IMG/VR virus record: IMGVR_UViG_3300044624_001054 | Span: 1-64,000 of that record | Length of the DNA stretch: 64,000 nt | Strand: one strand, 5' to 3' | Source of the DNA: a virus | Shown here: positions 24,737 to 42,318 of the stretch, piece after piece | Layout of the letters: each line of letters opens with the position of its first letter | Numbering within the stretch: the first letter of the stretch is position 1 | Program-made: the position numbers and the translations under genes | The notes under the pieces: model-generated | Told to the model about the DNA's origin: nothing | Database searches by the model: none | Seen by the model: the letters and a program-made list of their open reading frames with translations, nothing else

Positions 24737-25079
24737 AAAACGTAATATTCAAAGAGCAGCCAAATGGCGTCGCTCTGGACGAATAAAGGTATCAAGAGGA
24801 TGTGAGAGTGGCAGTTGTCCACTTCCGTCCGATTTTTTATTTGAACCTGTAGATTTAGACTTTGATCATATTGATGCTAATTTAAAGAAAGCCAATGTGT
24901 CCGATTTAATCCGTTCCGACTATGCATGGCCTACCATTCAATATGAAATTGACAAATGTCGTGTTATTTGCAAATTATGTCATGCACGACATTCCCGTGA
25001 TACCCGCGCTTCTTATAATCAGCATAGGACCCCCGTTTATGATGAGCCTACTAGCATTTTACATTTCCTAGGCATATAG
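24717..25079 (+). CDS. HNH endonuclease
   Basis: C...C, LDFDH, EIDKC.V.C..CH..H. Confidence 0.75.
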   Translation: MRMTRNEKRNIQRAAKWRRSGRIKVSRGCESGSCPLPSDFLFEPVDLDFDHIDANLKKANVSDLIRSDYAWPTIQYEIDKCRVICKLCHARHSRDTRASYNQHRTPVYDEPTSILHFLGI

Positions 25080-25308
25080 GCACGATCTTGCCTATTACTG
25101 CATTATAGTGCAGTATATTCTTATTTTTAATGCATTCTAGTGCAGTATAGGAATGATCGTTCCTATTAGACCATTTGCCGAACTTCTACCATACCGTTCG
25201 TCGTTATCAAATTGTTACCTTTTAATTTCATGAAAATGTTAATAAAATTTTATTATGTATAATGCACGAATTTAAGTGACTCCTTTCAGAGTCACTAGTG
25301 CGCCCATA

Positions 25309-25482
25309 CTAGACGCAGTAGTCACAGAAGACGGCGATATTGGTCGCCCACTCCAGCGTGTCGTCCATCGTGCAGACGAAACGGTCACACTCGCAAGTGC
25401 CTGCGAGAGTCAAGATCTCGTCATCCTTGCGAATGCCGATCATGTCAAGTACCTGGGTCATGTTCACCTCCTTAATGCTCAT
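25309..25482 (-). CDS. Small Cys-rich early protein
   Basis: Not in the ORF track. (MSIKEVN)MTQVLDMIGIRKDDEILTLAGTCECDRFVC...FCDYCV; RBS AAGGAGGTGA before ATG 25461, in-frame leaderless ATG at 25482. Confidence 0.65.
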   Translation of the reverse strand: MSIKEVNMTQVLDMIGIRKDDEILTLAGTCECDRFVCTMDDTLEWATNIAVFCDYCV

Positions 25483-25488
25483 AGGTAG

Positions 25489-25510
25489 AACCTACCATGA
25501 CCGTCCGACA
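25489..25510 (-). promoter_or_regulatory. PafBC/RecA-NDp-type promoter, leftward
   Basis: TGTCGG ACGGTCATGG TAGGTT on the minus strand, ATG 6 nt downstream. Confidence 0.7.
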
Positions 25511-25832
25511 TTCTGGGGCATAATGCGATATTCTTTGGTAACGATTAGGTTACAGCATAATGCGATTCTCTAGGCGCAAGATTCTGCTAGCATAATGCGG
25601 ATTCTAGACTTGACTTTCCTCCAGAAGGCGTGCCGGGCCGCGAATCGGACATATCGGATGATAACATTTACGTTACGATCTAAAAAACTCACGGCGTGTC
25701 GCTTGACATACAATTCGGACATAACGATCACTAAAACTTTTTTTAAATTGTTTTTAACCATGTCCGTTTTACCCTAGTTTGTATACCCCCTAGGGTAGGG
25801 TGAATGTCAGACCCCTATGATTGAATAGTTCC

Positions 25833-26003
25833 ATGAGCAAGCGAGAGGAGGTGACAGGGATGAGGTTCACTAAGGCTACCGTTCGCACTATCGTCAAGAA
25901 TGCGCGTTGCAATGATTGTGGTGAGAAGCACTACGATTCTATGGCTATCGTCAATGACGAGATCATGTGCGCTAATTGCCATAACGCTAAGGCGTTCGCC
26001 TAA
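25833..26003 (+). CDS. Small Zn-finger early protein
   Basis: CNDCG...CANCH, downstream of promoter 25805. Confidence 0.6.
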   Translation: MSKREEVTGMRFTKATVRTIVKNARCNDCGEKHYDSMAIVNDEIMCANCHNAKAFA

Positions 26004-26108
26004 CAACTAAATATTCCTAGGCAAATAAACCGCTTCGGGCGGGTGAGCCCTAGGCCAGACTGTCAGACCCCCCTGCTAGGGTAGGGGGTAGAAAGAAAGG
26101 GGTAGCAC

Positions 26109-26291
26109 ATGGCTACTAATGGATACCGCGCCGTGCGGATCGACGGCTTCGGATACGCTCCGATTGCATACACCCGTTGGACTACCCGCGAGGAGGCTAT
26201 GGCATACGCTCGCTATGCACAGCGTACTCGCGTGGGCGAGTGGGCCATACAGTCCAAGCGCAAGGTCATCCATAGGGTGGTGGGAGCATGA
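26109..26291 (+). CDS. Small early protein
   Basis: RBS AAAGGGG, downstream of promoter 26061. Confidence 0.6.
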   Translation: MATNGYRAVRIDGFGYAPIAYTRWTTREEAMAYARYAQRTRVGEWAIQSKRKVIHRVVGA

Positions 26292-26409
26292 TCGGCTTCG
26301 CACGCATTGACTACGCCGCTGCAGCACAGCAGCGTGAAGATTGGAAGGCGTGGCTGCAGGCTAAGGCTGCAGAGCGTAGACTGTCAGACCCTAGTGCTAA
26401 GGTGGAAGC

Positions 26410-26505
26410 ATGAGAACATTCGCGCAGCACGCGCTATCATTCGTCATCATCGGCGGTATCCTTATCGCCATGGCAATCGCTGGTGGAATAGAGGGAGCAT
26501 TCTAA
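26410..26505 (+). CDS. Leaderless 31-aa membrane peptide
   Basis: MRTFAQHALSFVIIGGILIAMAIAGGIEGAF, ATG 6 nt after the -10. Confidence 0.55.
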   Translation: MRTFAQHALSFVIIGGILIAMAIAGGIEGAF

Positions 26506-26780
26506 TGATTACCCGTGTAGAGTCCTACGGAACTAGCAACCTCATCAATGCTAAGGCTGCCCTCGCGCATCCCATGGCAGATGAGGTGTCTATCGCTCTA
26601 GGTGATGGAGCATACGCACGTTTTCCGCATACCGTCGAACTTGCATTCTTCAAGAATGGCGAGTGGGTTACTGAGCCTCTGCCAGAGTTGGCAGACTACT
26701 ACTCGCATGAAGTGTACCCCTACGTTTCCCTCATCGACTTCGCAATGTTCATGGAGAACTTCGGAACGGGGGAGGAGTGA
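26505..26780 (+). CDS. Hypothetical early protein
   Basis: TAATG overlap start with GAGGGAG RBS; MITRVESYG... Confidence 0.6.
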   Translation: MITRVESYGTSNLINAKAALAHPMADEVSIALGDGAYARFPHTVELAFFKNGEWVTEPLPELADYYSHEVYPYVSLIDFAMFMENFGTGEE

Positions 26781-26835
26781 TCATCATCATGGGAATCGTG
26801 TCTGCATTCCTTCTACTTGGAGTAGCCATAGGTCT

Positions 26836-26864
26836 AAAAAACCCTTGAAAATAAAGGGTTTTTT
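26836..26864. terminator. Bidirectional intrinsic terminator-like hairpin
   Basis: AAAAAACCCTT...AAGGGTTTTTT. Confidence 0.6.
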
Positions 26865-27090
26865 CGCACTTGACAAATTGCCAAGTGCGGGCCGGGTCCG
26901 CAATTTGGACATATCACCTAGGTTACGATTACGTTACGATGATCACGAATCACGGCATGTCGATTTGACAGACATATTGGACATATCACCGTTACCAACC
27001 TGTTATGAAAGTTGTCCGATTTGTATAGGTTTTGGATTAGGTAAATGTCAGTCCCCCATGATAGGTTGTACCTAGATAGAAAGGAACGAA

Positions 27091-27279
27091 ATGAACAACA
27101 CTCTCCATTCCCACCTCGTCTGTTGCTTCTGCGACAACGAGATCGGCTTCGATACCCGCGTGTGCGGAACGTGTCATGACTATAAGGGCATCATGACCGT
27201 GGAAGCCTTTGAGGACTACCTCAAGGTCGCCTATGATTGCGATTGCTTGTCAGACCTAGATGATAAGGTGTCAGCATGA
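27091..27279 (+). CDS. Small Cys-rich early protein
   Basis: CCFCD...CGTC; RBS AAAGGA. Confidence 0.6.
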   Translation: MNNTLHSHLVCCFCDNEIGFDTRVCGTCHDYKGIMTVEAFEDYLKVAYDCDCLSDLDDKVSA

Positions 27280-27554
27280 TTGATTCAGTAGCACGCATCG
27301 TTAGCACTCCCCTTCGTGAGTGCCCCCCGCTCTTTGAGTACGTTCTCAATGAGGGACCTGTCATGCAACTCGCTTGGCTTTCAGTAGAGCCAGAGGATGA
27401 TGATTGGTTTACCGTCACGTTTGTCGCCAATGGCGCGACGATCAAGTCACGCGGTGACGCGGAAACTCTTTGGCTTAGGCCAGAGGATAAGGATGATCCT
27501 GTGATTCAGGCGGAACTGATTACAGGTCTGGCTTCGATGGGGTTGGAGTTCTAA
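27276..27554 (+). CDS. Hypothetical early protein, leaderless
   Basis: ATG 6 nt after the -10 of promoter 27248. Confidence 0.6.
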   Translation: MIDSVARIVSTPLRECPPLFEYVLNEGPVMQLAWLSVEPEDDDWFTVTFVANGATIKSRGDAETLWLRPEDKDDPVIQAELITGLASMGLEF

Positions 27555-27757
27555 TGCCTAACGTAAAAGTCATTGACCGCCGTCCATTCGATATCAATAT
27601 GACCATGCAATGGAATGACATTCAGGAATTGCTCACACGCGCAGATCGTATGTGGGCATGTGCAGATAATCCAGCAGACTTTCAGGTGCTGGAACACATA
27701 GAGCAAACGCTGCAAGGTCTCGCAGATTCTATTCGAAAAAGACTTGACAAATCCTGA
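27554..27757 (+). CDS. Hypothetical early protein
   Basis: Overlapping start with GGAG RBS. Confidence 0.55.
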   Translation: MPNVKVIDRRPFDINMTMQWNDIQELLTRADRMWACADNPADFQVLEHIEQTLQGLADSIRKRLDKS

Positions 27758-27810
27758 AAGACGGGCCGGGCCGCGTTGTAAAAATGTTATATAAATAATT
27801 ACGTTACGAC

Positions 27811-27839
27811 TTGACAAGTCACGGGAATTTTGATAGGTT
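27811..27839 (+). promoter_or_regulatory. SigA-type promoter
   Basis: TTGACA-17-TAGGTT. Similar promoters at 29654 (TTGACA-18-TAGGAT), 30856 (TTGACC-17-TACTTT) and 35325 (TTGACC-17-TATACT). Confidence 0.65.
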
Positions 27840-27861
27840 CGACCTGTCGAAAGGAGGCAGC

Positions 27862-27987
27862 ATGGGTTCTGTCATTATTCCCGTCGCGTGCGACTGGCAC
27901 GCAGTCTACTCCATCCATGAGGATGGCGTATGGTATGGCCTCTACTGCGAGGAGTGTGATGAAACCTACCCGCCTGTGGCGGAGTAG
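27862..27987 (+). CDS. Small early protein (41 aa)
   Basis: RBS AAGGAGG; MGSVIIPVACDWH...YCEECD. Confidence 0.6.
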   Translation: MGSVIIPVACDWHAVYSIHEDGVWYGLYCEECDETYPPVAE

Positions 27988-28047
27988 GCCCGGCTCGCTG
28001 TCAGACCCCCGTGATAGGCTTACGATACGTTCTACGAAAGGATCGAA

Positions 28048-28179
28048 ATGGCTCGCTGTGAAGACTACCCGTGCTGTGGCCACACCGATGGCCTTGGCTG
28101 CAACTATGTCCCCGATATGGACTTCTACTATGAGCAGGCCCGTCGCCGTCTTGATGACGACTACTATGACTACTACTGA
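28048..28179 (+). CDS. Small Cys-rich early protein (43 aa)
   Basis: RBS AAAGGA; MARCEDYPCCGH... Confidence 0.6.
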   Translation: MARCEDYPCCGHTDGLGCNYVPDMDFYYEQARRRLDDDYYDYY

Positions 28180-28246
28180 AAGGCCCCGGCCCAGACTGTC
28201 AGACCCCTATGCTAGTCTTACGACACACCTACGAAAGGACACGAAA

Positions 28247-28369
28247 ATGGGCGAGGATATCATGTGCGATCTGTGGTTTGAGTCGCAGTACGAGGTTCCT
28301 GAGTTTGATCCGTGGGAGGCGGAGGCAGAGGTCATCATGGCCCAATGGGATGAGCCTGACTTCTTCTGA
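28247..28369 (+). CDS. Small acidic early protein
   Basis: RBS AAAGGA; MGEDIMCDLWFESQYEVPEFDPWEAEAE... Confidence 0.55.
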   Translation: MGEDIMCDLWFESQYEVPEFDPWEAEAEVIMAQWDEPDFF

Positions 28370-28485
28370 AGTCAGCCCCGGCCCGAAAATTCTCACATTG
28401 TCAAGTCTTACGATGTGACTTAAGACACACACGAAAACGGTCACGGGAATGCCTGACTGTCAGACCCCTATGGTAAGGTGAAGTC

Positions 28486-28733
28486 ATGAACCTAGAAGAA
28501 CTATACGAGAACTTCCTCCGTTTGGAGGCCACCCTAGACCTTGACCCCAACCCTTGGGTGTCAGACCCCCATGATAAGGTAGGTGCATGATGACAACGGT
28601 TGAGTTTGAGAAGGCATGGCTTGACGTTTACTACATGTTGGAGGACAACGCCTTCGACTATGCGCGGTGCATGTATCTGGACGACGGCACTCTGATTGTT
28701 GATGGGGTGCGCTATGAGGAGGTGCCTTTCTAA
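28486..28733 (+). CDS. Two consecutive leaderless small ORFs (28486-28590 and 28587-28733)
   Basis: Each ATG lies 6 nt after a TGTCAG-N10-TAAGGT promoter. Confidence 0.55.
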
Positions 28734-29105
28734 TGCAGAATATCTACAAGGTGTACTACCTTGGGCAGTACATGTGTTCATTCTTTGAGCGTGATGCTGC
28801 GCTCAACTGGATTGTCGATCTCGTTGCTGAAGGCGAGGGGGATTTCGGTGACTACGAGATTCTAGATGGGAGTGACTTCCTATGAGTTACCACCCCATCA
28901 CTCACGATGAATTCGATCAGATATTGCGCGAGTCGGAGATTCGTTGTCGGACCCTCATGATAGGATCTTTCCATGTTGAGAAGCAGGAAGCAGGCAGGAA
29001 AGCACAAGACTAATTGCTACTTTGGCTGCTGCCGTAGCATGACCAAGAAGCAGGAACGTCGCTACATCAAGCGGCGGGAAACTAACGAGTGGAAGAAGGA
29101 TCAGA

Positions 29106-29321
29106 ATGTGGCAGGATAAGGCAGCGTGCGCTGGAATGGATTCTAGCGTGTTCCTTTCGGGAGTGACCTCCCGCGTAAACATTGCTAAGGCGGTATGTGC
29201 ATCATGCCCCGTCATCCAAGAGTGCCTAGCGTTTGCACTTGCTAACGAGGACTATGAGCCCCATGTCTATGGTGGCATGACAGGTGAAGAGCGTAAGCGC
29301 ATTGCATTGGCGGTGGCATGA
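29106..29321 (+). CDS. WhiB-family transcription factor
   Basis: WQDKAAC...AKAVCASCPVIQECL.FAL...VYGGMT.EER. Confidence 0.88.
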   Translation: MWQDKAACAGMDSSVFLSGVTSRVNIAKAVCASCPVIQECLAFALANEDYEPHVYGGMTGEERKRIALAVA

Positions 29322-29689
29322 TGGTAAAGGTAGAGATGACACGCGGTGACTGGGATGCAGTCCTAACATGCCTGCGAGAATTGATGGATCAGGGTTGGAT
29401 CGTGAAGGGTCTCTATAATGAGATCATTGACCAAGTAGATGAACAGGAGTACTGATATGAGTTACCTTGATTACCTTCCCGCCGATGGCGATTTCACAGA
29501 GGATGAACTGTGGGAGGCTATCGCAGAAGATTTGGGAATCGATCCATCAGAGATCATGGATGGGGATTTGGTGGATTTTATCTAATACCACCCCGCGAAA
29601 GCGGCCCCGGCCCGTTTTCCAAGAATACTCATAGGTTTACGACCTCTTACGATTTGACACGGGGGTCACGGTCATGGTAGGATCACTCT

Positions 29690-29836
29690 ATGAGTAATCG
29701 TGTGAGCCCCCGCCGTAGTGCGGAGCATAATCGTATCGTTGTTGAGCGTCGTCGCTCTAATGCCGCGCAGCCTCATAAGAATAAGGCTAAGTATTCGCGC
29801 AAGGCCAAGCATCGTAACCGTTTCGTTACCGACTGA
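29690..29836 (+). CDS. Small basic leaderless protein
   Basis: MSNRVSPRR...RRSNAAQPHKNKAKYSRKAKHR, ATG 6 nt after TAGGAT. Confidence 0.6.
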   Translation: MSNRVSPRRSAEHNRIVVERRRSNAAQPHKNKAKYSRKAKHRNRFVTD

Positions 29837-29885
29837 TCCCCATATTCCCCCTTTCATTGTCAGACCCTAGTGCTAGGATCATTCC

Positions 29886-30443
29886 ATGATTACAGTTACC
29901 GCCCCTGAGGGCACACTCGCATACGCTACCTACGCCGCTCGCTTTGAGAGCCTTATCATGACCGCTACCCTCTCGCAGACTGAGGCTGCTAGCGTCTGGT
30001 ACCATGACGCCGCTGCCGTTGCCTCTGAGGTTGCTCGCAACCTTGGCACCTCACTTGAGGTTGGCGCGTCTATCGTTGCAGCATTCTCCCCGCGTGAGCG
30101 CTGGTCCACTAACGTCGCTAAGGCTATCGCGTACTCGCTTGGCTCGCGTCCCGCTGGCCTTGGCAATAACCTTCGCATGGCAGACGCCGCAGTCGCGGCA
30201 GGCTTTGACGCTCTCAAGGGTGCAAAGACTAACGCATTCGCTCGCGCTATCGCAGGCGACACTAACGCAGTTGTCATTGACGTTTGGATGATGCGTGCGG
30301 CAGGCATGGAAACCGACTCACCTAACAAGTCTCAATATGCGCTACTGTCTGAGGCTGTCGTGGGAGTCGCGCAGCAGTTTGGCATCACGCCGCGCACCGC
30401 GCAGGCTCTCATCTGGATCATCGTGCGAGGGGGTGCAGCATGA
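29886..30443 (+). CDS. Conserved phage early protein (DUF7178-like, HhH-like)
   Basis: WY..A, AAFSPRERW..N, GAKT.AF, VVIDVWM.RA, QALIW. Confidence 0.6.
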   Translation: MITVTAPEGTLAYATYAARFESLIMTATLSQTEAASVWYHDAAAVASEVARNLGTSLEVGASIVAAFSPRERWSTNVAKAIAYSLGSRPAGLGNNLRMADAAVAAGFDALKGAKTNAFARAIAGDTNAVVIDVWMMRAAGMETDSPNKSQYALLSEAVVGVAQQFGITPRTAQALIWIIVRGGAA

Positions 30444-30914
30444 ATAAGCCTAAGCCATATGTTCGTCTAGTTACTGACTCAGGTAGTGGGGAGTCGCAAC
30501 TGACTAGAATGTTCGACAACGCAGAGGAAGCCCTGTCGTATCTTAGCGGATACATCGGAACGTATCCCATCACTATCCTAGAGTTTGACCTAGATTGGAG
30601 TTGGAAGTGAACGACATAACGCTAGATAATTTTCGGGAGATGCTGCGCGATTTTGTGGGAGTGTGATATGGAGATTTTTCTCGTCGCTATCGGATTCTTC
30701 CTCGCCCTAGGAGTAATAATCGGACTCATGGACAAATAGGCTTGACAGCCCCGCTTCGGCGGGGCCGGGCCGCTTTGTACACATATGTCCATATATTTAC
30801 GATTACGATTAAGAAATCACAGGAATATTTCACAGTAATTTTTAAGAATGTCCCCTTGACCATCACGGCAATATCGTGTACTTTAGAGTCATAACTGAAG
30901 AGGGGAGGAAATAG

Positions 30915-31124
30915 ATGGGTGAATACCTAGTTGCTGATAAGTTATATGGGTTCTCTATAGAGCCTAATGATATTCTCCGCACCGCCGACGGAAATGAGAT
31001 AGTCGTTTCCTTTGTAGATTCGGTGGAAGGAGGGTATGATATTCACTATAAAGACCTTGACGGAGAGGAAGATATCTACCACCTCCCCGAAGATGACATG
31101 ATCGACCTACTCATTCTAGAATAA
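30915..31124 (+). CDS. Hypothetical early protein
   Basis: RBS GGAGG. Confidence 0.6.
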   Translation: MGEYLVADKLYGFSIEPNDILRTADGNEIVVSFVDSVEGGYDIHYKDLDGEEDIYHLPEDDMIDLLILE

Positions 31125-31134
31125 GGAGAAACAA

Positions 31135-31290
31135 ATGGCTAAGAAGAAGGCAAACAAGTTCTCATATCTTGAGACTTGGAACACTCGCTACGGGGTTCAG
31201 ACTCGTATTGTTACCCGTGTTGATGGCAAGTTCGTTGATTCAACCCCCGCACTTGAGACACTCCGCAAGGGCGTCCCTGCTGGTCGCTGA
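31135..31290 (+). CDS. Small basic protein (51 aa)
   Basis: RBS AAGGAG; MAKKKANKFSYLETWNTRYG... Confidence 0.6.
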   Translation: MAKKKANKFSYLETWNTRYGVQTRIVTRVDGKFVDSTPALETLRKGVPAGR

Positions 31291-31298
31291 CCAGTTGG

Positions 31299-31330
31299 GC
31301 GAACCTGGACATGTTCGCTAAAACTGTCCA
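31299..31330 (+). ncRNA. Conserved H-type pseudoknot, copy 1
   Basis: GCGAAC CTGGACAT GTTCGC TAAAAC TGTCCA. Confidence 0.65.
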
Positions 31331-31413
31331 ACATTCATGGTTGAGATCCTAGTAAATTATGGGATAGGTTATGTAGAGGATCTGCGCTGACACTCCCCAT
31401 ATACCATGGATAA

Positions 31414-31494
31414 GCCCGAGTGGTGGAATTGGCAGACACGCACGACTCAAAATCGTGTTCCATTGGAGTGTGGGTTCAAGTCCCACCTTGGGCA
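31414..31494 (+). tRNA. tRNA-Leu(CAA)
   Basis: Acceptor GCCCGAG/CTTGGGC, loop CTCAAAA, variable arm. Confidence 0.9.
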
Positions 31495-31660
31495 CTAGGT
31501 GGGGGCATGTGACCCGCTATCACACCTTGTTTGGCGAACGGAAGGTGGGATTCCTTCCTAAGATAGCATCGACTCGCTCCCCCACCAACCTTCTAAAAGT
31601 CTTGACTACTGTCAGACCCACATGATAGAGTTCTACTACCTACTAGAGAAAGAGACTGTT

Positions 31661-32050
31661 ATGGGAGACCGCGCTAACTTTGGAATCCGTCAGAATGACG
31701 GCAACATCATCTTCATCTACGGACATTGGGCAGGAGCAGGGATGCTTGCTAAGTTTGCTAATGCTCTTGACCATGTTCAGAATGTTGGTCGTATTGACGA
31801 CCAGGCTTATGCAAATCGCATCATCATCTCGCAGTTGGTTGGCGAGTCTTGGTCTGGCGATCTTGGCTGGGGTGTTACTGTGAACTACCTTGCAGACAAC
31901 GAGCATAAGGTTCCTGTCTATGACTTTGCACTCCGCGAGGTAACTCTCTATGACTATGATTGGAAGTCAGGCGTGCTGACTGATATGATTGTCACGTTCT
32001 CGCTGAACGAGTTCATCCGTAAGTACGCTAAGACCTTGGTGGAGGTGTAA
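31661..32050 (+). CDS. Conserved phage early protein
   Basis: MGDRAN...IYGHWAG, downstream of promoter 31610. Confidence 0.65.
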   Translation: MGDRANFGIRQNDGNIIFIYGHWAGAGMLAKFANALDHVQNVGRIDDQAYANRIIISQLVGESWSGDLGWGVTVNYLADNEHKVPVYDFALREVTLYDYDWKSGVLTDMIVTFSLNEFIRKYAKTLVEV

Positions 32051-32051
32051 C

Positions 32052-32495
32052 ATGATTGACCCTAGCATGACTGACATTCATCCTTACCCGCCAACTATGC
32101 AGGAGTTGGAGTTGCGGGTCATCGAACTGAATACAGAGATCAACCGTCTGACTTCAGAGGTAGAGGCTATACAGAGTGACCGTGACTACTGGAGGGGCCA
32201 GACGAACTATCGTCAGGCCCAGATTGACGGTCTTGAGTCATATCTCAAGGAGAACTTTGACTACATTGATGAGAATGTGACGCAGGAACTTGTTGATATC
32301 TTCTCTCTTACTATCACCAGGGACTATGATGTGACAATCACCGTCACATTCTCTGGTGTTGTTACTGCTCCTCTCAATTTCGATATGGATAGCCTTGAGG
32401 ATTCTCTGAATGCTAGTCTTGAGGCATCCTACTACGGAGATGTAGAGGCAGACTTCTCAGAGGATCATATGGAGATTGACTGGACAGAGAGTTAG
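32052..32495 (+). CDS. Acidic coiled-coil protein
   Basis: RBS GGAGGT; heptad N-terminus. Confidence 0.65.
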   Translation: MIDPSMTDIHPYPPTMQELELRVIELNTEINRLTSEVEAIQSDRDYWRGQTNYRQAQIDGLESYLKENFDYIDENVTQELVDIFSLTITRDYDVTITVTFSGVVTAPLNFDMDSLEDSLNASLEASYYGDVEADFSEDHMEIDWTES

Positions 32496-32527
32496 GCAGC
32501 GGTGGTATCCTAACTACGCCTCCGCCC

Positions 32528-32564
32528 TGCAGACCTGAGCATGTCTTGCATAATAAACTGCTCA
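32528..32564 (+). ncRNA. Conserved H-type pseudoknot, copy 2
   Basis: TGCAGAC CTGAGCAT GTCTTGCA TAATAAAC TGCTCA, 2 nt before tRNA-Glu. Confidence 0.65.
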
Positions 32565-32566
32565 CG

Positions 32567-32639
32567 GCTCCCATCGTCTAGAGGCCAAGGACGCCGCCCT
32601 TTCAAGGCGGTAGCACGGGTTCGAATCCCGTTGGGAGTA
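32567..32639 (+). tRNA. tRNA-Glu(UUC)
   Basis: Acceptor GCTCCCA/TGGGAGT, loop CTTTCAA. Confidence 0.92.
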
Positions 32640-32711
32640 CAACCCCTGGAGAGAATGTGCGGAATCCGCCACCAACCCCACCATTCCGCTTCCCTCTCCA
32701 GGGGCCTAGTC

Positions 32712-32754
32712 GGGCGGGGGGAAGTTGACGGTCTCCTTCCCCCTGCCTTGTTTT
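32712..32754 (+). terminator. Intrinsic terminator
   Basis: GGGCGGGGGGAAG...CTTCCCCCTGCCT followed by TGTTTT. Confidence 0.6.
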
Positions 32755-32923
32755 ATCGGCCCGGCCCGAAAAATTTAATCTGTCAAGCATTTACGATCTC
32801 TCTTTTACGATCACGGGAATTTGTTACCAGAAATTTATCTAAATAATCTGCTAGATATTCTTGAGACTGTCAGACCTAGGGTGTATAGTTCTTCTATAAG
32901 TTCAATCAACTAAGGAGATACAT

Positions 32924-33919
32924 ATGGCACACGCAGTAGAGGTTGGCGCTAACGGAGAGCAGGCTTTTGCTTCCTTCCGCGAACCCGCTTGGCATGGTCT
33001 TGGTACCGTGTTCTTTGAGGAGAAGTCCACCCGCGAGATGCTGGATGCGGCTTACCTTTCTAACTGGGACGTTCGCCTTGAGGCCGTTCCTTACCCTTCC
33101 GACTACAATGTGATCACGCCTTCCTACATGGTACTGCGTGATAACCCCTTTGACCAGGGAACTGACGTTCTCGCTACCGTTGGCGAGCGTTACCACGTTC
33201 TTCAGAACGAGGATCTTTTCGACTTTGGTGATGCGCTGCTTGACGGTGGTCGCTGGGAGACCGCTGGCTCTATTCGCCAGGGTCGCGTTGTGTTCGGCTC
33301 GCTTGCGCTTGAGCGTGAGACTGTCCTTGATCCCAACGGCGTTTCGGATGTTGTGAAGTCCTACCTTCTCGTCCACACCTCGCATGACGGTTCTACCGCT
33401 GTGCAGGCTTCCATCACTCCCGTCCGCGTTGTGTGCCAGAACACTCTGAACATGGCTCTTCAGGGTGTGAAGCAGTCCTTCAAGATTCGTCACACGCAGA
33501 CTGTCGGTGGCAAGGTTATGGCTGCACGCGAGGCTCTTGCTCTCGCAAACACCTACCTGGATGAGTTCGACAAGGAGGCCAAGGCTCTCATCGCCAAGGA
33601 TATCACCAAGGCCAAGTTCGATGCCATCGTGCAGGCTGTCTACCCTCGCCCTGAGGCTGATGCCAAGGGTGCTGTCAAGAAGTGGGAGAACAAGGTCGAT
33701 CTCATTGAGGAGATTTGGACCTCTGACACCAACAACATGATCGCTACCACCGCGTGGGGTGCGTTCAATGCAATGACGGAGCGCCTTGACTGGTTCCGCA
33801 AGGGTCGTGGCGAGCGGGGTGCTGAGAATGTTCTCGCTGCTGCTAGTGGTTTCGATCCTGTCACCAATGCGGAGAAGGGTCGCATCCTGAAGGCTGTCAA
33901 GGAGATCGCTTTCGCGTAA
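32924..33919 (+). CDS. DUF932-family protein (LGT_TIGR03299-like)
   Basis: REPAWHGLG, VGERYHVLQN, WETAGS, SHDGS, TPVRVVCQNTL, IRHT, TAWGAFNA.TE; strong GC-host-type codon bias. Confidence 0.85.
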   Translation: MAHAVEVGANGEQAFASFREPAWHGLGTVFFEEKSTREMLDAAYLSNWDVRLEAVPYPSDYNVITPSYMVLRDNPFDQGTDVLATVGERYHVLQNEDLFDFGDALLDGGRWETAGSIRQGRVVFGSLALERETVLDPNGVSDVVKSYLLVHTSHDGSTAVQASITPVRVVCQNTLNMALQGVKQSFKIRHTQTVGGKVMAAREALALANTYLDEFDKEAKALIAKDITKAKFDAIVQAVYPRPEADAKGAVKKWENKVDLIEEIWTSDTNNMIATTAWGAFNAMTERLDWFRKGRGERGAENVLAAASGFDPVTNAEKGRILKAVKEIAFA

Positions 33920-33923
33920 TCAA

Positions 33924-33952
33924 ACATCCTGGGCATGATGTAAAACTGCCTG
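33924..33952 (+). ncRNA. Conserved H-type pseudoknot, copy 3
   Basis: ACATC CTGGGCAT GATGT AAAAC TGCCTG, 3 nt before tRNA-Trp. Confidence 0.65.
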
Positions 33953-33955
33953 CAC

Positions 33956-34023
33956 GCCACCCGCGCTGGGCGCAGACGAGATTCCAACCCTTGTCGTGCA
34001 GAGTTCGATTCTTTGGGGTGGTG
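33956..34023 (+). tRNA. Non-canonical tRNA-Trp(CCA) with reduced D-arm
   Basis: Acceptor GCCACCC/GGGTGGT, D-arm GCGC-TGG-GCGC, loop TTCCAAC, T-arm CAGAG-TTCGATT-CTTTG. Confidence 0.65.
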
Positions 34024-34027
34024 CTTG

Positions 34028-34100
34028 GCACTTGTAGAGTAGCGGTTATCTCGCCACCCTGTCACGGTGGAGATCGTGGGTTCGAATCCCATCAGGTGCG
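34028..34100 (+). tRNA. tRNA-Asp(GUC)
   Basis: Acceptor GCACTTG/CAGGTGC, loop CTGTCAC. Confidence 0.92.
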
Positions 34101-34245
34101 CTTGACAAATCTAAGAATTTGGGGCCGGGCCGTCCAAGAATATTCTAAGACTCTTTTACGATCTTCTTACGAAAGTCACAGGAATTTTCGCTGGAATATG
34201 TCAGACCCACATGCTACGCTTTATGTATTCGACAGAAGGAGCATT

Positions 34246-36411
34246 ATGAACATCTACGGCATAACAGAAGAAGATATGGCCTCTCCGACCTTTCCCAACG
34301 AGAATGATATTCTTGCATCTATCGTCAAGAACATGAAGGATATTCTAGATGGTGAGTGTGAGCGACCTGATATTGCTGCCCTTGCCGTGTCGATAGACTT
34401 CTTTGTCTTAGATCACTACATGCGTAATGGACGCATCCCTACTGCTTGGAGGAACTAATGGCAACCATCACATTCTCAGTAGAACTTATCTACGAGGGAA
34501 CTGGTCACTTCATGGATTTTGAATATGACTATGAGACTTGGGATGATATGGCCACCGAGGAAGCGGAAGCATTGGCTGACGATCTTGCTAGTGGTCGTAA
34601 CCCTGAGTTGTTCAATGAGATCATGGCTAACATTTCTATTGTCCCCACCGTTGAGAATGTGGTGGCTGATGAATCTGAATGATGTTGAGACTGGTTGCTA
34701 CATTGACGGTAGTCATCGTGATTCCATCGAATTCTCTTTGCTAGTTATCGAAATGGCTCATGACTATGGATTTGAGTTGGATTGGGACCAGTTTGTCAAG
34801 GATGCCGCCAACATGCGCGATCCTGGTTACATGATGGAAGAGGACGAACTGAACGAGGTTCTAGATGCTATTGAATGGACGTATGAGGATGCGCTAGACT
34901 ATCTCAACATCAACACCCGCGAGCCTTTGATGTGGGTGGTAAGAGACCAGAGTTTGTTTCTTATGACATATGATGAGGCTGATGACTAAACACCATAGTT
35001 ATATACTTTAGCAGGTATATCTATGCTAATTCACACAACTATGTATCTGGAGGAATGATGCTAGCCAGTAATATGCTTACCAAAGATCAGATGCTAGAGC
35101 AGTATGAGGTTCTAGGATTTGCTTATGGCATGTGTGTAGTCAAGCGCATGTCTGATGGTGTGAAGGGGACATTGGATTTTGGAGATCATCCTATCCTCCG
35201 TCCCGAGGATTCTTCCAACCCGCTTGGCTATACTCGTTACTACTACAACTTTGTGGAGGCGTGATGAGTAACATTGTATGTTACTTCAATCCAGAATTCG
35301 CTGGTAAGTTTATTGCCAACTGGCTTGACCCCGCCATGTTTGACGACTATACTCTAGATATTGTTGATGATTGCCTAGTGCTTAGGGAGAAGTGATGGAT
35401 GTTTCGGTAGAGGTTCAGAATGTTAGTTTCATTATTGACGCAGAGGATGAGAGCGAGGCTATCGCTAGGGTAGAGGAGTTTCTCCAGGAGTACGCCTGGG
35501 ACTGGACCCAGCCCTACGCGGGATAACTGATGAAACACACATTCATTGTAACGGTAGAGTGCGAAGAAGCAGCAGACGCTTTGCTTGTAATGGGCGAGCG
35601 TTTGGACTATGATGAGGACTATGGATTCCCCTACTCAGTAGATTGGAAGTGGAAGTGAAACAATATCGTATTGTCCTGCCCCTGGAAGTATGGGGAGAGT
35701 TTGAGGATGACGAGGATCATGAGTTTATCAAGGAAGTCCTAGGAGATAAGTTGGACGGACTCTTGATTTCTACCGACTACCTGTGGGATTATTGGAAAGA
35801 CGCCAAAGTCGAACCTATGGAGGGCTAATGACTAATATCACCATGCACCTTACTGCTAACTTTTACCCGCCCATTCCCGCTGACATTCAGATGCGCGTGC
35901 AGGAGATTTTCGATGAGTTGCAGCGCGACTCCGATCCATATATTCTAGGCTGGGCAGACGTTCCCGAGAATTGGGACTATGACGTATCTGATGAGTCTGT
36001 GTTTGATCGCACCTATGAGTTGCCGAATGGCGCGGTAGTGACAGGACGTAGCCTACTTGATGATCTGCGCCTGTGGGATGCCCTGTGGTGGGACTGTGAT
36101 GAGCCTATGGACACTCTCGCAGACTACGAGCGTGAGCAGAAAGAATATGCAGGCCAACTATCATTTTGGACGGTGGAGTAATGAAGGTTAGATTTCTAGA
36201 GATTGACTGTGGACCAGGCGGTACAGTATGGGAGTTGCACGCTAACACCCATGAGCATCTTAGGACATATGACAGCGAGGCGGCTATGCTGAATGATGCT
36301 GCCCTACTTAGAATGGTCAATGTAGATTATAGATTCTACACTCAGGCTGAATATAACCTAGAGGTACAAGTAGAGATCATGACAGAGAATGGGGCATGGA
36401 ATGAACGATAG
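34246..36411 (+). other. Operon of about 10 small, mostly acidic, hypothetical early genes
   Basis: Overlapping ORFs with GGAG RBSs, e.g. 34246-34458, 34458-34682, ~34669-34989, 35055-35264, 35643-35828, 35828-36181, 36181-36411. Confidence 0.6.
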
Positions 36412-36655
36412 AGAGTATCTAAGAAGTTTGGGATTTGAGGTAGGTGATCGTGGTCGGTACTCTAAGGAGATGAAGGCTGCCCTTGCTACCCGCGACGGAG
36501 TAGATCCTGATGCCCCCGCTTCTGAGTATGGTGCTAATGATAGGTTCGCGGACGGTCGGTATCGTGTAGAGCGATCCAATGGTCTTCCAAGGACACCAGA
36601 CGTTCCAGGTATTGACTTTGGCCCTGGACTTGCGGTATCATCGACACGGAGGTAA
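36401..36655 (+). CDS. Lsr2-like DNA-binding-domain protein
   Basis: REYLRSLGFEVGDRGRYSKEMKAAL matches the Lsr2 C-terminal domain with its RGR AT-hook. Confidence 0.7.
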   Translation: MNDREYLRSLGFEVGDRGRYSKEMKAALATRDGVDPDAPASEYGANDRFADGRYRVERSNGLPRTPDVPGIDFGPGLAVSSTRR

Positions 36656-36658
36656 AAC

Positions 36659-36937
36659 ATGGAGGATAAGGTATCCAAACAGATATTGTCAGGCTTTGCA
36701 GATAGTAGGCTCAATCCCTCACATCTTGCATGGCTTGTCAAGTTGCATACAACGCCACAGATCGACAATATGCTAAAGGAGTTCTTCTATTATTACACCG
36801 TGTTCCGCAATCAGGATACAGAAGAAAACGATGCACGATGGATGGGAGAGAAGTTGATGAATGACCTACGAAATCCAGACTATGATGGTCTAAGCAATCC
36901 TCCTCCCCCTGGTACACGCATAGTGTTTGCAGATTAG
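36659..36937 (+). CDS. Hypothetical early protein
   Basis: RBS GGAGGT. Confidence 0.6.
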   Translation: MEDKVSKQILSGFADSRLNPSHLAWLVKLHTTPQIDNMLKEFFYYYTVFRNQDTEENDARWMGEKLMNDLRNPDYDGLSNPPPPGTRIVFAD

Positions 36938-36941
36938 ACAT

Positions 36942-36970
36942 ACTTCCTGGGCATGAAGTTAAACTGCCCC
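36942..36970 (+). ncRNA. Conserved H-type pseudoknot, copy 4
   Basis: ACTTC CTGGGCAT GAAGT TAAAC TGCCCC, 2 nt before tRNA-Tyr. Confidence 0.65.
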
Positions 36971-36972
36971 TA

Positions 36973-37052
36973 GCCTCGCAGCCCCCAAGGTGGGGGAGCG
37001 GTCTGTAAAACCGTCGCCATTGGCACGCTTGGTTCGATTCCAAGGCGGGGCA
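36973..37052 (+). tRNA. tRNA-Tyr(GUA)
   Basis: Acceptor GCCTCGC/GCGGGGC, loop CTGTAAA, variable arm. Confidence 0.85.
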
Positions 37053-37080
37053 CTTGACAAATCGATTCGGGCGTGCCGGG

Positions 37081-37555
37081 CTATCCACAAGTTATCCACA
37101 ATACCTTTACGAACCTATTACGAACGATCACGGAAAAATCACAGGAATTTTTAAGACATTAAATTTTATTAATGTCACACACATATGATAGGATGGCACA
37201 TGGAAATTTTATTATGTATTATCATAGGGCTATTATGGCTAGGATTATTCACTCCACCGCCCCGCGATTAGCGGCGGCGGTGTGTCATTTATATCCCCTA
37301 TATAACTATGTAAACAATAGGGTAAATACCTATCATTTCTGATAATATATCTTCAACTTTTGATAACTTTTATGTCAAAAGTATTACGATCCGACCATAA
37401 AAAATCACTGGAATTTTTGGCATATTCGCCTATATTTATCTAATTAGACATTACGAACGCGCCTAAAAAATCACTGGAATATTTACCTTAAAATATTCTC
37501 ATATACACGAAGTTATCCACAGGTTATCCACCATTACGATCCCGCCTGTGGATAT
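37081..37555. promoter_or_regulatory. DnaA-box cluster
   Basis: TTATCCACA at 37092 and 37513; one-mismatch boxes at 37081 (CTATCCACA), 37524 (TTATCCACC) and 37547 (TGTGGATAT). Confidence 0.6.
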
Positions 37556-41307: not shown

Positions 41308-42318
41308 TCATAATTGTAGCCACTCTGGATTATCCAGAGTCCATTTTACCGTTCTCTCTAAAGATTCTTCAAGTGATAGGGGTGCCTTCCACCCTGTACC
41401 AGCAATTTTAGCACCGTCCAAAGCATAACGCAAGTCATGTCCTGGACGAGATGAGTGGAAATCTACTAGTTCATAGTTTAATTCATTTCCAACAAAACTA
41501 GCAACCATTTGAGCCATCTCTAAATTATCCATCTCTCTCTCGCCAACAACATGGAATTTTTGAGGGGCCTGAGACTCTCCATAGACTGGCGTAGGCTGGT
41601 TCAGGGCATGGAGTAGGGCATCTGCCTGGTTCCTAGCATGAAGATAATATCTACTGCCAATCTGTCCAGTTGGAGAAGCATGGATAGCCATTTTATCTCC
41701 AGCCAAAACCTTCTTAATGGTCATAGGGATGAACTTCTCTGGGTCCTGCATCTCACCAATGATGTTCATGGTGTTGGTGATAATTAGAGGTACACCATAT
41801 GTCCTCCAATATGAATAGGCAATTGACTCTTGGGCAGCCTTAGATGCAGAGTATGGATTGCTTGGGAAGTACTGATCCATCCATTCACGGTGGGCATGGC
41901 CTACAGGAGCAGGGCCATAGACTTCATCAGTAGACACATGCAAAAACTTCTCAATGTCTGAGAATCTTGCCCACTCTAGCATATTACAAACTAGAGATAC
42001 ATTATTCTCAATGAAAGGGACTGGCTCTGTAATAGACCTATCAACATGCGAGTCGCTAGCAACGTTAAGAACATAGTCAATCTTGCCAATCTCATGAGAT
42101 AGGACAGGAGAGATAGGGGCAGTAAGGTCATGCTTAAGAACCTTTACCCTCTTAAAGTCATCATCGTATCCTGCCACCGCCAGACGAATTCTGTCTGTTA
42201 TTCCACGGTGTCGAAAAGATACCAAACAAACTACATTCCAGTCTGTGTTGGCAAGAATGTGACGCAATACATGGCTGCCAACAAATCCGCTAGCACCAGT
42301 TAGAAGTACAGTAGTCAT
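41308..42318 (-). CDS. rmlB: dTDP-glucose 4,6-dehydratase-like enzyme
   Basis: TGASGFVGS, SHVDRSI, STDEVYG, PSNPYSASKA, RPGHDLRYAL. Confidence 0.85.
   Translation of the reverse strand: MTTVLLTGASGFVGSHVLRHILANTDWNVVCLVSFRHRGITDRIRLAVAGYDDDFKRVKVLKHDLTAPISPVLSHEIGKIDYVLNVASDSHVDRSITEPVPFIENNVSLVCNMLEWARFSDIEKFLHVSTDEVYGPAPVGHAHREWMDQYFPSNPYSASKAAQESIAYSYWRTYGVPLIITNTMNIIGEMQDPEKFIPMTIKKVLAGDKMAIHASPTGQIGSRYYLHARNQADALLHALNQPTPVYGESQAPQKFHVVGEREMDNLEMAQMVASFVGNELNYELVDFHSSRPGHDLRYALDGAKIAGTGWKAPLSLEESLERTVKWTLDNPEWLQL

Follow-up and report, generated by a model that had tools for sequence, protein, structure and literature searches.

PafBC-Dependent Promoters and Related Phage Systems

PafBC is a heterodimeric activator of the WYL type which is switched on by single-stranded DNA and is inactive without it. 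It is placed between sigma region 4 and the -26 element of the promoter, where it replaces recognition of a -35, a mode of activation known as 'sigma adaptation'. The genes recA, chiZ-like, and imuA'-like are its classical targets. To our knowledge, binding by PafBC has been demonstrated in mycobacteria only, and PafBC and sigma adaptation are known solely from the chromosome, as part of a stress response that was investigated in mycobacteria. PafBC acts via the RecA-NDp motif (PMC6789036), and its published consensus is tGTCgg(N10)tA(N3)T (PMC8635444). Promoters which depend on it are described from Mycobacterium, Streptomyces, and other Actinobacteria (PMC8635444, PMC6789036, PMC11804915). 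No paper describing such PafBC-type promoters in a phage was found in the literature.

In the middle promoters of phage T4, which form a temporal class, an activator box likewise replaces the -35 upstream of a normal -10: a MotA box at -30 is combined with a sigma-70 -10, and MotA and AsiA act by 'sigma appropriation'. Activator and co-activator are both products of T4 itself, whereas no phage-encoded factor was found in the phage described here, and its box corresponds to the site of a host activator. The stoperators of cluster A mycobacteriophages are likewise numerous short asymmetric sites which are all oriented with transcription. However, stoperators are spread genome-wide, have no fixed distance to a -10, and are bound by the repressor of a temperate phage, whereas the present sites lie in one 12-kb block with rigid spacing, and a search for tyrosine integrases found none in this phage or its complete relatives. 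An operator or stoperator array of a temperate phage was rejected on the grounds of this confinement and the lack of a tyrosine integrase.

The Streptomyces cluster BE phages (Stanwilliamsviridae, e.g., NootNoot) carry direct terminal repeats of ~11 kb (PMC5764925). Their DnaE and DUF932 proteins are 57-60% and 56% identical, respectively, to those of the phage under study. As in cluster BE, ThyX adjoins a series of small genes which lie on one strand and have individual (here predicted) promoters, and DUF932 falls inside the terminal repeat, which is a probable one in the present phage. The difference lies in the promoters, which in cluster BE consist of a TTGnnn -35 and TGTCCY-N10-TAGACT rather than TGTCRG. 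Cultured relatives have no TGTCRG arrays; Wakanda has a single match, and NootNoot combines a -35 with a related box, TGTCCY.

A Putative Promoter Array in a Lake Actinophage

The phage is known from an uncultured lake record of 106.6 kb (~107 kb), and its predicted host is actinobacterial. The window analyzed here comprises 64,000 nucleotides (positions 1 to 64,000 of IMG/VR record IMGVR_UViG_3300044624_001054). The phage is probably lytic, given that a search for tyrosine integrases was negative and that it is related to the lytic cluster BE phages. Within the window lies an island with a GC content of 49.8%, against 38.6% elsewhere in the record. It holds ~40 small ORFs, most without a match to a known family, as well as WhiB, DUF932, DUF7178, and four tRNAs. 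The island resembles the terminal-repeat small-gene array of the cluster BE phages and is probably a collapsed direct terminal repeat; as such, it would be the first phage DNA to reach the cell. Its genes are probably early.

The preliminary description of this DNA had reported 14 exact and two one-mismatch copies of TGTCRG-N10-TANNNT, and a recount by scans of the window and the whole record gave the same figures. Shuffled sequences contained 0.96 exact copies on average and at most 4, and none of 100 shuffles reached 14. The copies had also been said to occur only in the early island. This holds for the whole 106,615-base record, where the same 14 exact copies (~1 expected by chance) are confined to 25489-34220, none is found elsewhere, and a backwards control pattern occurs twice. 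Genome-wide there are 52 one-mismatch matches, and only those at 25805 (-10 TTGAAT) and 37173 (TGTCAC) have the extended consensus. These two were grouped with the 14 exact copies as one repeat family of 16 (Table 1).

Table 1. Promoter copies and associated features of the island.
Feature	Position	Strand	Details
Island	25039..37464	+	central part of the single plus-strand block in the record (~23.1-38.7 kb)
Copy 1, exact, TGTCGG	25489..25510	-	leaderless ATG 25482; 57-aa ORF 25309-25482
Copy 2, one mismatch (-10 = TTGAAT)	25805..25826	+	leaderless ATG 25833
Copy 3	26061..26082	+	26-nt leader including ribosome-binding site; ATG 26109
Copy 4	26382..26403	+	leaderless ATG 26410; 31-aa membrane peptide
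Copy 5, TGTCAGTCCC	27046..27067	+	leader; ATG 27091
Copy 6	27248..27269	+	leaderless ATG 27276; within preceding ORF
Copy 7	27999..28020	+	leader; ATG 28048
Copy 8	28197..28218	+	leader; ATG 28247
Copy 9	28458..28479	+	leaderless ATG 28486
Copy 10	28559..28580	+	leaderless ATG 28587; within preceding ORF
Copy 11, TGTCGG	28945..28966	+	leaderless ATG 28973; operon including WhiB gene 29106-29321
Copy 12	29858..29879	+	leaderless ATG 29886; DUF7178 protein 29886-30443
Copy 13	31610..31631	+	extra -35 TTGACT, 18-nt spacing; leader; ATG 31661
Copy 14	32868..32889	+	extra -35 TTGAGA, 17-nt spacing; leader; ATG 32924; DUF932 protein 32924-33919
Copy 15	34199..34220	+	leader; ATG 34246
Copy 16, one mismatch (TGTCAC)	37173..37194	+	right edge of island
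Ordinary SigA-type promoter, TTGACA-17-TAGGTT, TGa in front	27811..27839	+	gene 27862-27987; read from sequence
Ordinary SigA-type promoter, TTGACA-18-(TG)n-TAGGAT	29654..29683	+	leaderless ATG 29690; 48-aa basic peptide

In all 16 copies the box is separated from the TAnnnT -10 by exactly 10 nt. Fifteen lie on the plus strand and one (25489) on the minus strand, and each points the same way as the next ORF (16/16). The TG at -15/-14 before TAnnnT, the class feature of extended -10 SigA promoters, is present in 15 of the 16. The seventh base 3' of the -10, the expected start base, is A in 14/16, and bases 7-10 of the copies are mostly ACCC. Half of the copies (8/16) are followed by a leaderless ATG exactly 6 nt 3' of the -10, and a canonical -35 is absent from 14/16, the exceptions being 31610 and 32868. 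In orientation, in the eight leaderless starts, and in the two -35 elements, the features read by the preliminary description were all recovered. The observation of a TGTCRG-N10-TANNNT array is confirmed. Contigs from relatives join position 27271 to 28482, directly 3' of two promoter copies. The RNA-library contigs that match this DNA stem from relatives, and transcription starts are not visible in contigs of this kind.

A box-independent search used the anchor TGnTAnnnT-N6-ATG followed by an open frame, which leaves out the TGTCRG box. In this genome the box stood at the exact offset in 7/13 cases, and wherever an anchor case had a box it was at the exact 10-nt offset (7/7). The rest of the phage genome has -10-only promoters without TGTCRG, so that promoters with the box appear to form a regulatory class of their own.

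The motif had previously been assigned to the RecA-NDp/PafBC type, and both consensus and spacing do match the published PafBC consensus (PMC8635444). Like RecA-NDp promoters, the phage copies combine a TGTCRG box, exactly 10 nt, and a TAnnnT -10, usually without a -35; the predicted start is 6-7 nt 3' of the -10, and leaderless genes are frequent. Unlike them, they are phage-borne rather than chromosomal, are packed into a dense array (16 within 12 kb), and precede ORFans instead of repair genes. They also differ from the mycobacterial consensus in their strong preference for ACCC 3' of the box.

The Same Architecture in Other Phages

Further searches revealed the same architecture, arrayed on one strand, in over 200 IMG/VR phage contigs of lake type and low GC. 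Two forms were found, TGTCAG-ACCC and TGTCRG-TGG, sometimes both in one phage; the latter, carried by related phages, is the canonical RecA-NDp form. The canonical TGTCGGTGG form, used as the scan pattern, likewise returned low-GC contigs, in which the median number of copies per locus was 7. Five other phage records were found to contain 9-26 copies each on one strand of a single region of ~6-12 kb, with 0-2 matches to the control pattern, and ACCC, AGGG, and canonical TGG forms co-occur inside single phages among them.

When 682 sites taken from 119 other phage loci were combined into a logo, it showed a conserved A 7 nt 3' of the -10, followed by a leaderless ATG or by a ribosome-binding site ~10-20 nt downstream. 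As judged from these positions, this is promoter geometry. TG at -15/-14 is found in 75-81%, and conservation is limited to functional positions. When the box-independent anchor was applied to the other phage loci, TGTCRG stood at the exact offset in 49/50 cases with the hexamer within 30 nt.

The Candidate Host

The epimerase of the phage is 67% identical to one from a freshwater Actinomycetota MAG. On this one gene, two WhiB genes, and the lake habitat, the host is most likely a member of a family of small-genome freshwater Actinomycetota with pafB-pafC. The preliminary description had named the presence of pafBC in the predicted host as a point to check, and the candidate lineage does carry pafB-pafC, with the same architecture at damage genes. 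In the MAG with the epimerase match the pair adjoins tatC, and over their full length its two proteins match PafB and PafC in the RNAP-PafBC structure 7P5X (E 3e-34 and 3e-32). WYL-domain genes were present in 61/61 sampled genomes of the family, mostly as a pafBC-like tandem pair, and most genomes have a third WYL gene encoding a ~730-aa protein.

The same box and spacing occur in this family at recA and, beside LexA boxes, at a LysM chiZ-like gene. DUF6504 (imuA'-like) loci have an exact site in 18/30 cases and a one-mismatch site in 7/30, and the majority of these sites precede a LexA box by 2 nt. The box also precedes leaderless genes, and G/C-rich triplets including CCC occur 3' of it. 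The host sites inspected (recA and the DUF6504 loci) have no extended -10 TGn, which the phage copies add.

Which Factor May Read the Box

The island promoters are built like host PafBC promoters, which suggests that the phage probably borrows the DNA-damage switch of its host. In the proposed mechanism, an extended -10 (TGnTAnnnT, -15 to -7) joined to TGTCRG at -28 to -23, mostly without a -35, would be read by host SigA RNA polymerase, and host PafBC at the box would activate or boost the island genes. The terminal repeat would enter the cell first, and the trigger would be single-stranded DNA that arises when the ends are processed or during first replication. We put the probability at about 0.55 that the 16 elements are real promoters for host SigA RNA polymerase which host PafBC activates or boosts. 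From the sequence we infer promoter activity, PafBC binding and dependence, the host, the early timing, and the trigger. Host PafBC is the most likely activator because the phage encodes no such factor: the earlier statement that the window holds no WYL analogue extends to the whole record and to two 100%-complete relatives, and a search of this phage for sigma-70 region 2 was also negative. A phage WYL protein or phage sigma factor as reader of the box was rejected on these results. To this extent the earlier interpretation, a host damage sensor serving as early activator, appears partly supported; all of its parts that are accessible to sequence analysis agreed with it.

Several observations temper this reading. 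PafBC may modulate the promoters and not be required, because an extended -10 can by itself make a -35 unnecessary; its near-universal presence could render the promoters partly activator-independent. The need of PafBC for single-stranded DNA also fits awkwardly with a role at the first genes of all. Moreover, since cultured relatives have no TGTCRG arrays, there is room for a lineage-inherited promoter design read by something else. One such reader would be a phage adaptor without a recognisable domain, made from the few ordinary promoters or carried in the virion, which redirects host polymerase via TGTCRG in the manner of MotA/AsiA at T4 middle promoters, so that the likeness to PafBC would be mimicry or convergence. 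Most island ORFs match no known family, the island's ordinary -35/-10 promoters could fire first, and the different box of the cultured relatives, TGTCCY, at the same distance to the -10 hints at a design of the phage lineage. We nevertheless consider an adaptor unlikely. No gene is common to all motif-bearing loci, the most widespread, DUF932, being found in 46/119; 27 loci have no ORF in common with this phage, and 12 of them still hold at least 4 copies. In relatives, the small gene that would be the best adaptor candidate has PafBC-type promoters of its own, host damage genes show the identical box and spacing, and the searches for WYL genes (phage and relatives) and for sigma-70 region 2 (phage) were negative.

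Extended -10 promoters function without a -35, and with TGn in 15/16 copies the island promoters might be constitutive SigA promoters in which TGTCRG is the operator of a shut-off repressor, or a PafBC sink blunting the host damage response. The box overlaps the spacer, a frequent place of repressor binding, and dense arrays could titrate a low-copy factor. This has about the same low probability as an adaptor, since rigid spacing to the -10 (49/50) is typical of a polymerase-contacting element and not of an operator, and host sites of the same geometry are activator sites in studied species. The -10-only promoters elsewhere in the genome also count against it, suggesting that the box makes a contribution particular to the island. 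Somewhat less probable again is that a different host factor reads the box, either an alternative sigma factor or another WYL regulator, such as the ~730-aa protein that most members of the candidate family encode. Demonstration of PafBC binding in mycobacteria only leaves room for it, but the host sites lie at classical PafBC/RecA-NDp targets (recA, chiZ-like, and imuA'-like genes) and the -10 box is of the SigA type. Least probable is that the copies have no promoter function and are a dispersed repeat mediating cassette exchange. The junction of 27271 to 28482 in contigs of relatives, directly 3' of two copies, would fit such exchange; however, the geometry to start codons is fixed, the A at the start position is conserved, orientation always matches the gene, and only functional positions are conserved across the 682 sites.

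Implications for Phage and Host Biology

Newly seen here are the extended -10 in 15/16 copies, the start-base A in 14/16, the arrays in more than 200 contigs, and the pafBC-like pair of the candidate host. WYL regulators have otherwise been tied increasingly to anti-phage defence. If phages have indeed taken over the PafBC promoter as a whole, this would be the first example of a WYL-type sensor of single-stranded DNA that serves a virus as transcription activator. In uncultured lake viromes, early genes and actinobacterial hosts could then be recognised by a simple sequence signature, and DNA damage, for example by UV in surface water, would be coupled to phage gene expression in some of the most abundant freshwater bacteria. 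More tentatively, a large and abundant group of lytic lake actinophages may have no early activator of its own, with host PafBC as the obligate switch for the terminal-repeat genes and the entry and processing of the linear DNA end as the trigger. This we regard as possible, with the odds somewhat against it; if true, the alarm of the host would become the ignition key of the phage.

A probable promoter class confined to the island

The preliminary description had reported 14 exact copies of TGTCRG-N10-TANNNT, in which the TGTCRG box would serve as a -26 element. The same number was counted in the window, whereas shuffled sequences averaged 0.96 and never exceeded 4. A scan of the full 106,615-base record (88% complete by CheckV) found no further exact copy, so the motif is restricted to the island, a block of small genes; the backwards control pattern matched twice in the full record. 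The two one-mismatch copies described earlier are the only ones among 52 such matches genome-wide that fit the extended consensus. Each of the 16 copies faces the next ORF; only one is on the minus strand, the other 15 being on the plus strand. All eight proposed leaderless ATGs were confirmed at a distance of exactly 6 nt from the -10 box. The remaining eight copies have leaders of ~19-34 nt, in most of which a ribosome-binding site of the GAAAGGA type is present.

The 16-copy consensus is TGTCAG-ACCC-nn-a-TG-n-TAgGnT. It contains an extended -10 (TG at -15/-14 in 15 of 16 copies), and the predicted +1 is A in 14 of 16. A -35 element is additionally present at two copies, as had been noted. 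At least two ordinary SigA promoters also lie inside the island. The remainder of the phage genome uses -10-only promoters without the box, which therefore defines a separate promoter class. A second conserved motif was sought for minus-strand genes and rejected, as enrichment was limited to generic TATAAT-like -10 words.

Positions of features in the phage record
Feature	Position	Strand	Description
Plus-strand block	~23.1-38.7 kb	+	Only such block; the island is its core
Island	25039-37464		49.8% GC vs 38.6% for the remaining phage
Island contig ends	~25.03 and ~37.46 kb		One independent lake metagenome
Promoter copy	25489	-	Divergent from 25805
Direct repeats	25519-25605		Three copies of GCATAATGCG(a/g)(t)ATTCT, between the divergent promoters
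Promoter copy	25805	+	One mismatch
Intergenic-cassette repeat families	near 26866, 27740, 34098, 37050 and neighbours
Joined points in relatives	27271 and 28482		Each directly behind a promoter copy
Basic peptide	29690-29836		48 aa, very basic, weak DUF7230 match
Promoter copy	37173		One mismatch
Epimerase	41308-42318	-	67% identical to a gene of a 1.2-Mb freshwater Actinomycetota MAG

The same class in other phages

Further scanning of IMG/VR with the ACCC form (named after the bases directly behind the box) matched at least 119 stretches. Most of the 119 loci listed combine a GC content of 36-40% with 3-26 copies of the relaxed motif, biased to one strand. A logo built from 682 unique sites has information only at the box, the C-rich triplet behind it, the TG at -15/-14, the -10, the A and a downstream signal. 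The A lies 7 nt behind the -10; after it comes an ATG (57 sites, offset 6) or else a ribosome-binding site rich in purines. When sites were instead anchored independently of the box, on TGnTAnnnT-N6-ATG plus an open frame, 49 of 50 cases with TGTCRG nearby had it at precisely the expected offset.

Whole-record scans of five other phages found 26, 19, 11, 23, and 9 copies, while the control gave 0-2. Two to four stray matches apart, each array is confined to one ~6-12 kb region on one strand, and the ACCC, AGGG, and canonical RecA-NDp TGTC(A/G)G-TGG forms co-occur within single phages. Among the matches listed from an IMG/VR scan with TGTCGGTGG, the median copy number per locus was 7 in low-GC contigs; no arrays were found outside low-GC contigs in the scanned sample, where contigs of at least 55% GC had single chance-like copies. 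No gene common to all 119 loci listed was found. Moreover, 27 of the 119 have no ORF in common with this phage, and 12 of those 27 still carry at least 4 copies. Judged from these sequences, the motif represents a promoter class that is widespread among phages.

Genome layout and the nature of the island

Nearly all genes are on the minus strand. The record includes two WhiB genes, a DnaE-type polymerase, a class II ribonucleotide reductase, and ThyX, with nine tRNAs within the window. DnaE is 57-60% identical, and the DUF932 protein 56% identical, to proteins of Streptomyces cluster BE phages. These phages carry two DUF932 copies per genome, at 1.2-2.6 kb and hence inside their direct terminal repeat of ~11 kb (PMC5764925). 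As in the present phage, their DUF932 genes lie amid a small one-strand gene array beside ThyX.

In one independent lake metagenome, exact-match contigs over the island have a depth of 13-16.5, compared with 6-8 in flanking contigs, a weak hint since these contig depths come from one run. Given the approximately doubled depth, the contig breaks at the island edges, and synteny with the cluster BE terminal-repeat array, the island is probably a collapsed direct terminal repeat. At least 0.9 of its sampled words occur in each of eight lake-water runs, two of which may be where this DNA came from, and it is therefore not an assembly chimera. No near-identical cultured phage turned up when the island was compared by megablast with 50,697 phage records, and the Vibrio-phage matches that were all a 40-nt promoter query returned were rejected as chance. 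RNA runs (two freshwater metatranscriptomes and one wastewater) yielded only contigs of relatives, 90-99% alike, which cannot show transcription starts.

Several further repeats were observed. The three direct repeats between the divergent promoters resemble operators or iterons. Among the repeat families of the intergenic cassettes, CTTGACAAAT..GGGCCGGG occurs in 4 copies, two directly behind tRNAs, and TCACRGGAATTTT in 6 copies; TTACGTTACGA is also found there. In contigs of relatives from two RNA-library runs, positions 27271 and 28482 of the island are joined, and promoter copies seem to be junctions for gene-cassette swapping.

PafBC-type sites in the candidate host

The link to a host, made through the phage epimerase and the MAG, is thin. 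The preliminary description had proposed checking the host for pafBC, and in the MAG two WYL genes do lie side by side, with tatC after them. One of the pair encodes HTH_PafC, WYL, and WCX domains, and both proteins, along their entire length, match the PafB/PafC chains of 7P5X, the mycobacterial RNAP-PafBC structure. WYL genes, mostly as a tandem pair, were found in 61 of 61 sampled genomes (1.0-2.2 Mb) of the candidate host family.

The box with its spacing occurs upstream of host-family recA, behind a LexA box, as an exact TGTCAGCGG...TACCGT in one genome and with one mismatch in three. It is also found at a LysM chiZ-like gene flanked by LexA boxes. Among 30 imuA'-like DUF6504 loci, an exact site is present at 18 and a one-mismatch site at 7. 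Most of these sites lie 2 nt ahead of a LexA box, and a -35-like TTGnCn often precedes them. TTGnCn, the box with its TAnnnT -10, and the LexA box are stacked within ~55 nt, which looks like dual LexA and PafBC control. Further sites precede leaderless genes for DUF3263, Dam methylase, and a Rce1-like protease. The G/C-rich triplets behind the box (CCC, GGG, TGG, AGG) span the same range in host and phages, whereas the TGn extended -10 of the phage copies is lacking at the host sites. Overall enrichment of the relaxed motif is absent from the candidate host genome (7 vs 10 control matches), the signal being found only at specific genes or with an NCC extension (37 vs 12). Another sequence conserved in the host family, TGTCAGACC..TAATAT, is not an obvious promoter; in four genomes it directly adjoins a ~78-nt tRNA-like element that has a GTTCGAGTCC loop and ends that pair, and that was negative in ARAGORN and Rfam.

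Which factor reads the box

PafBC, the heterodimeric WYL-domain activator of actinobacterial hosts, acts through exactly this type of RecA-NDp motif (PMC6789036; PMC8635444) and is switched on by single-stranded DNA (PMC11804915). The best-supported mechanism, with a probability of roughly 55%, is that the copies are SigA promoters in which a PafBC-type -26 element would replace the missing -35, and that host PafBC would activate or boost the terminal-repeat genes when single-stranded DNA appears. Owing to the extended -10, PafBC may be dispensable; a rival suggestion, that the box is an operator or sink on constitutive promoters, is improbable. Still less likely is a different host factor as its reader, and it is very doubtful that the copies are a non-promoter repeat.

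A phage adaptor that is not recognisable as such could also read the box, which is about as improbable as the operator. In its favor, the terminal-repeat small-gene array of the cultured Streptomyces phage NootNoot (1-14000) carries 6-7 copies of TTGnnn -35 plus TGTCCY-N10-TAGACT on the gene strand, and Wakanda, another cultured relative, has a single TGTCRG-type match. TGTC is equally distant from the -10 in NootNoot and the present phage, but the last two bases of the box differ. This use of TGTCCY and a -35 rather than TGTCRG by cultured relatives means that a factor passed down in the phage lineage may be involved. The window had been described as free of WYL genes, and a search of the full record likewise found no WYL domain; none was found in two relatives that carry the same arrays and are 100% complete. 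Sigma-70 region 2 was not found in this phage record, nor a tyrosine integrase in this phage or complete relatives. Searching 20 ORFs, 19 of them within or next to the island and one the second WhiB, against Pfam and PHROGs gave only DUF7178, DUF932, ThyX, WhiB, and weak zinc-finger-like matches, and no DNA-binding candidate emerged among them; island ORFs other than WhiB, DUF932, and DUF7178 are ORFans. The basic peptide has homologues in at least 21 motif-bearing phage loci, with TGTCGT as the promoter box in three relatives. It was rejected as a constant immediate-early factor because homologues lie under PafBC-type promoters in relatives.

No description of phage transcription linked to RecA-NDp/PafBC promoters was found in the literature searched (PafBC, WYL, and freshwater actinophage promoters), where the nearest item is reportedly a 2025 study on pafBC and mycobacteriophage resistance. 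The promoter class itself is already known; what is new, as read from the arrays, is that phages use it on a mass scale and in fusion with an extended -10.
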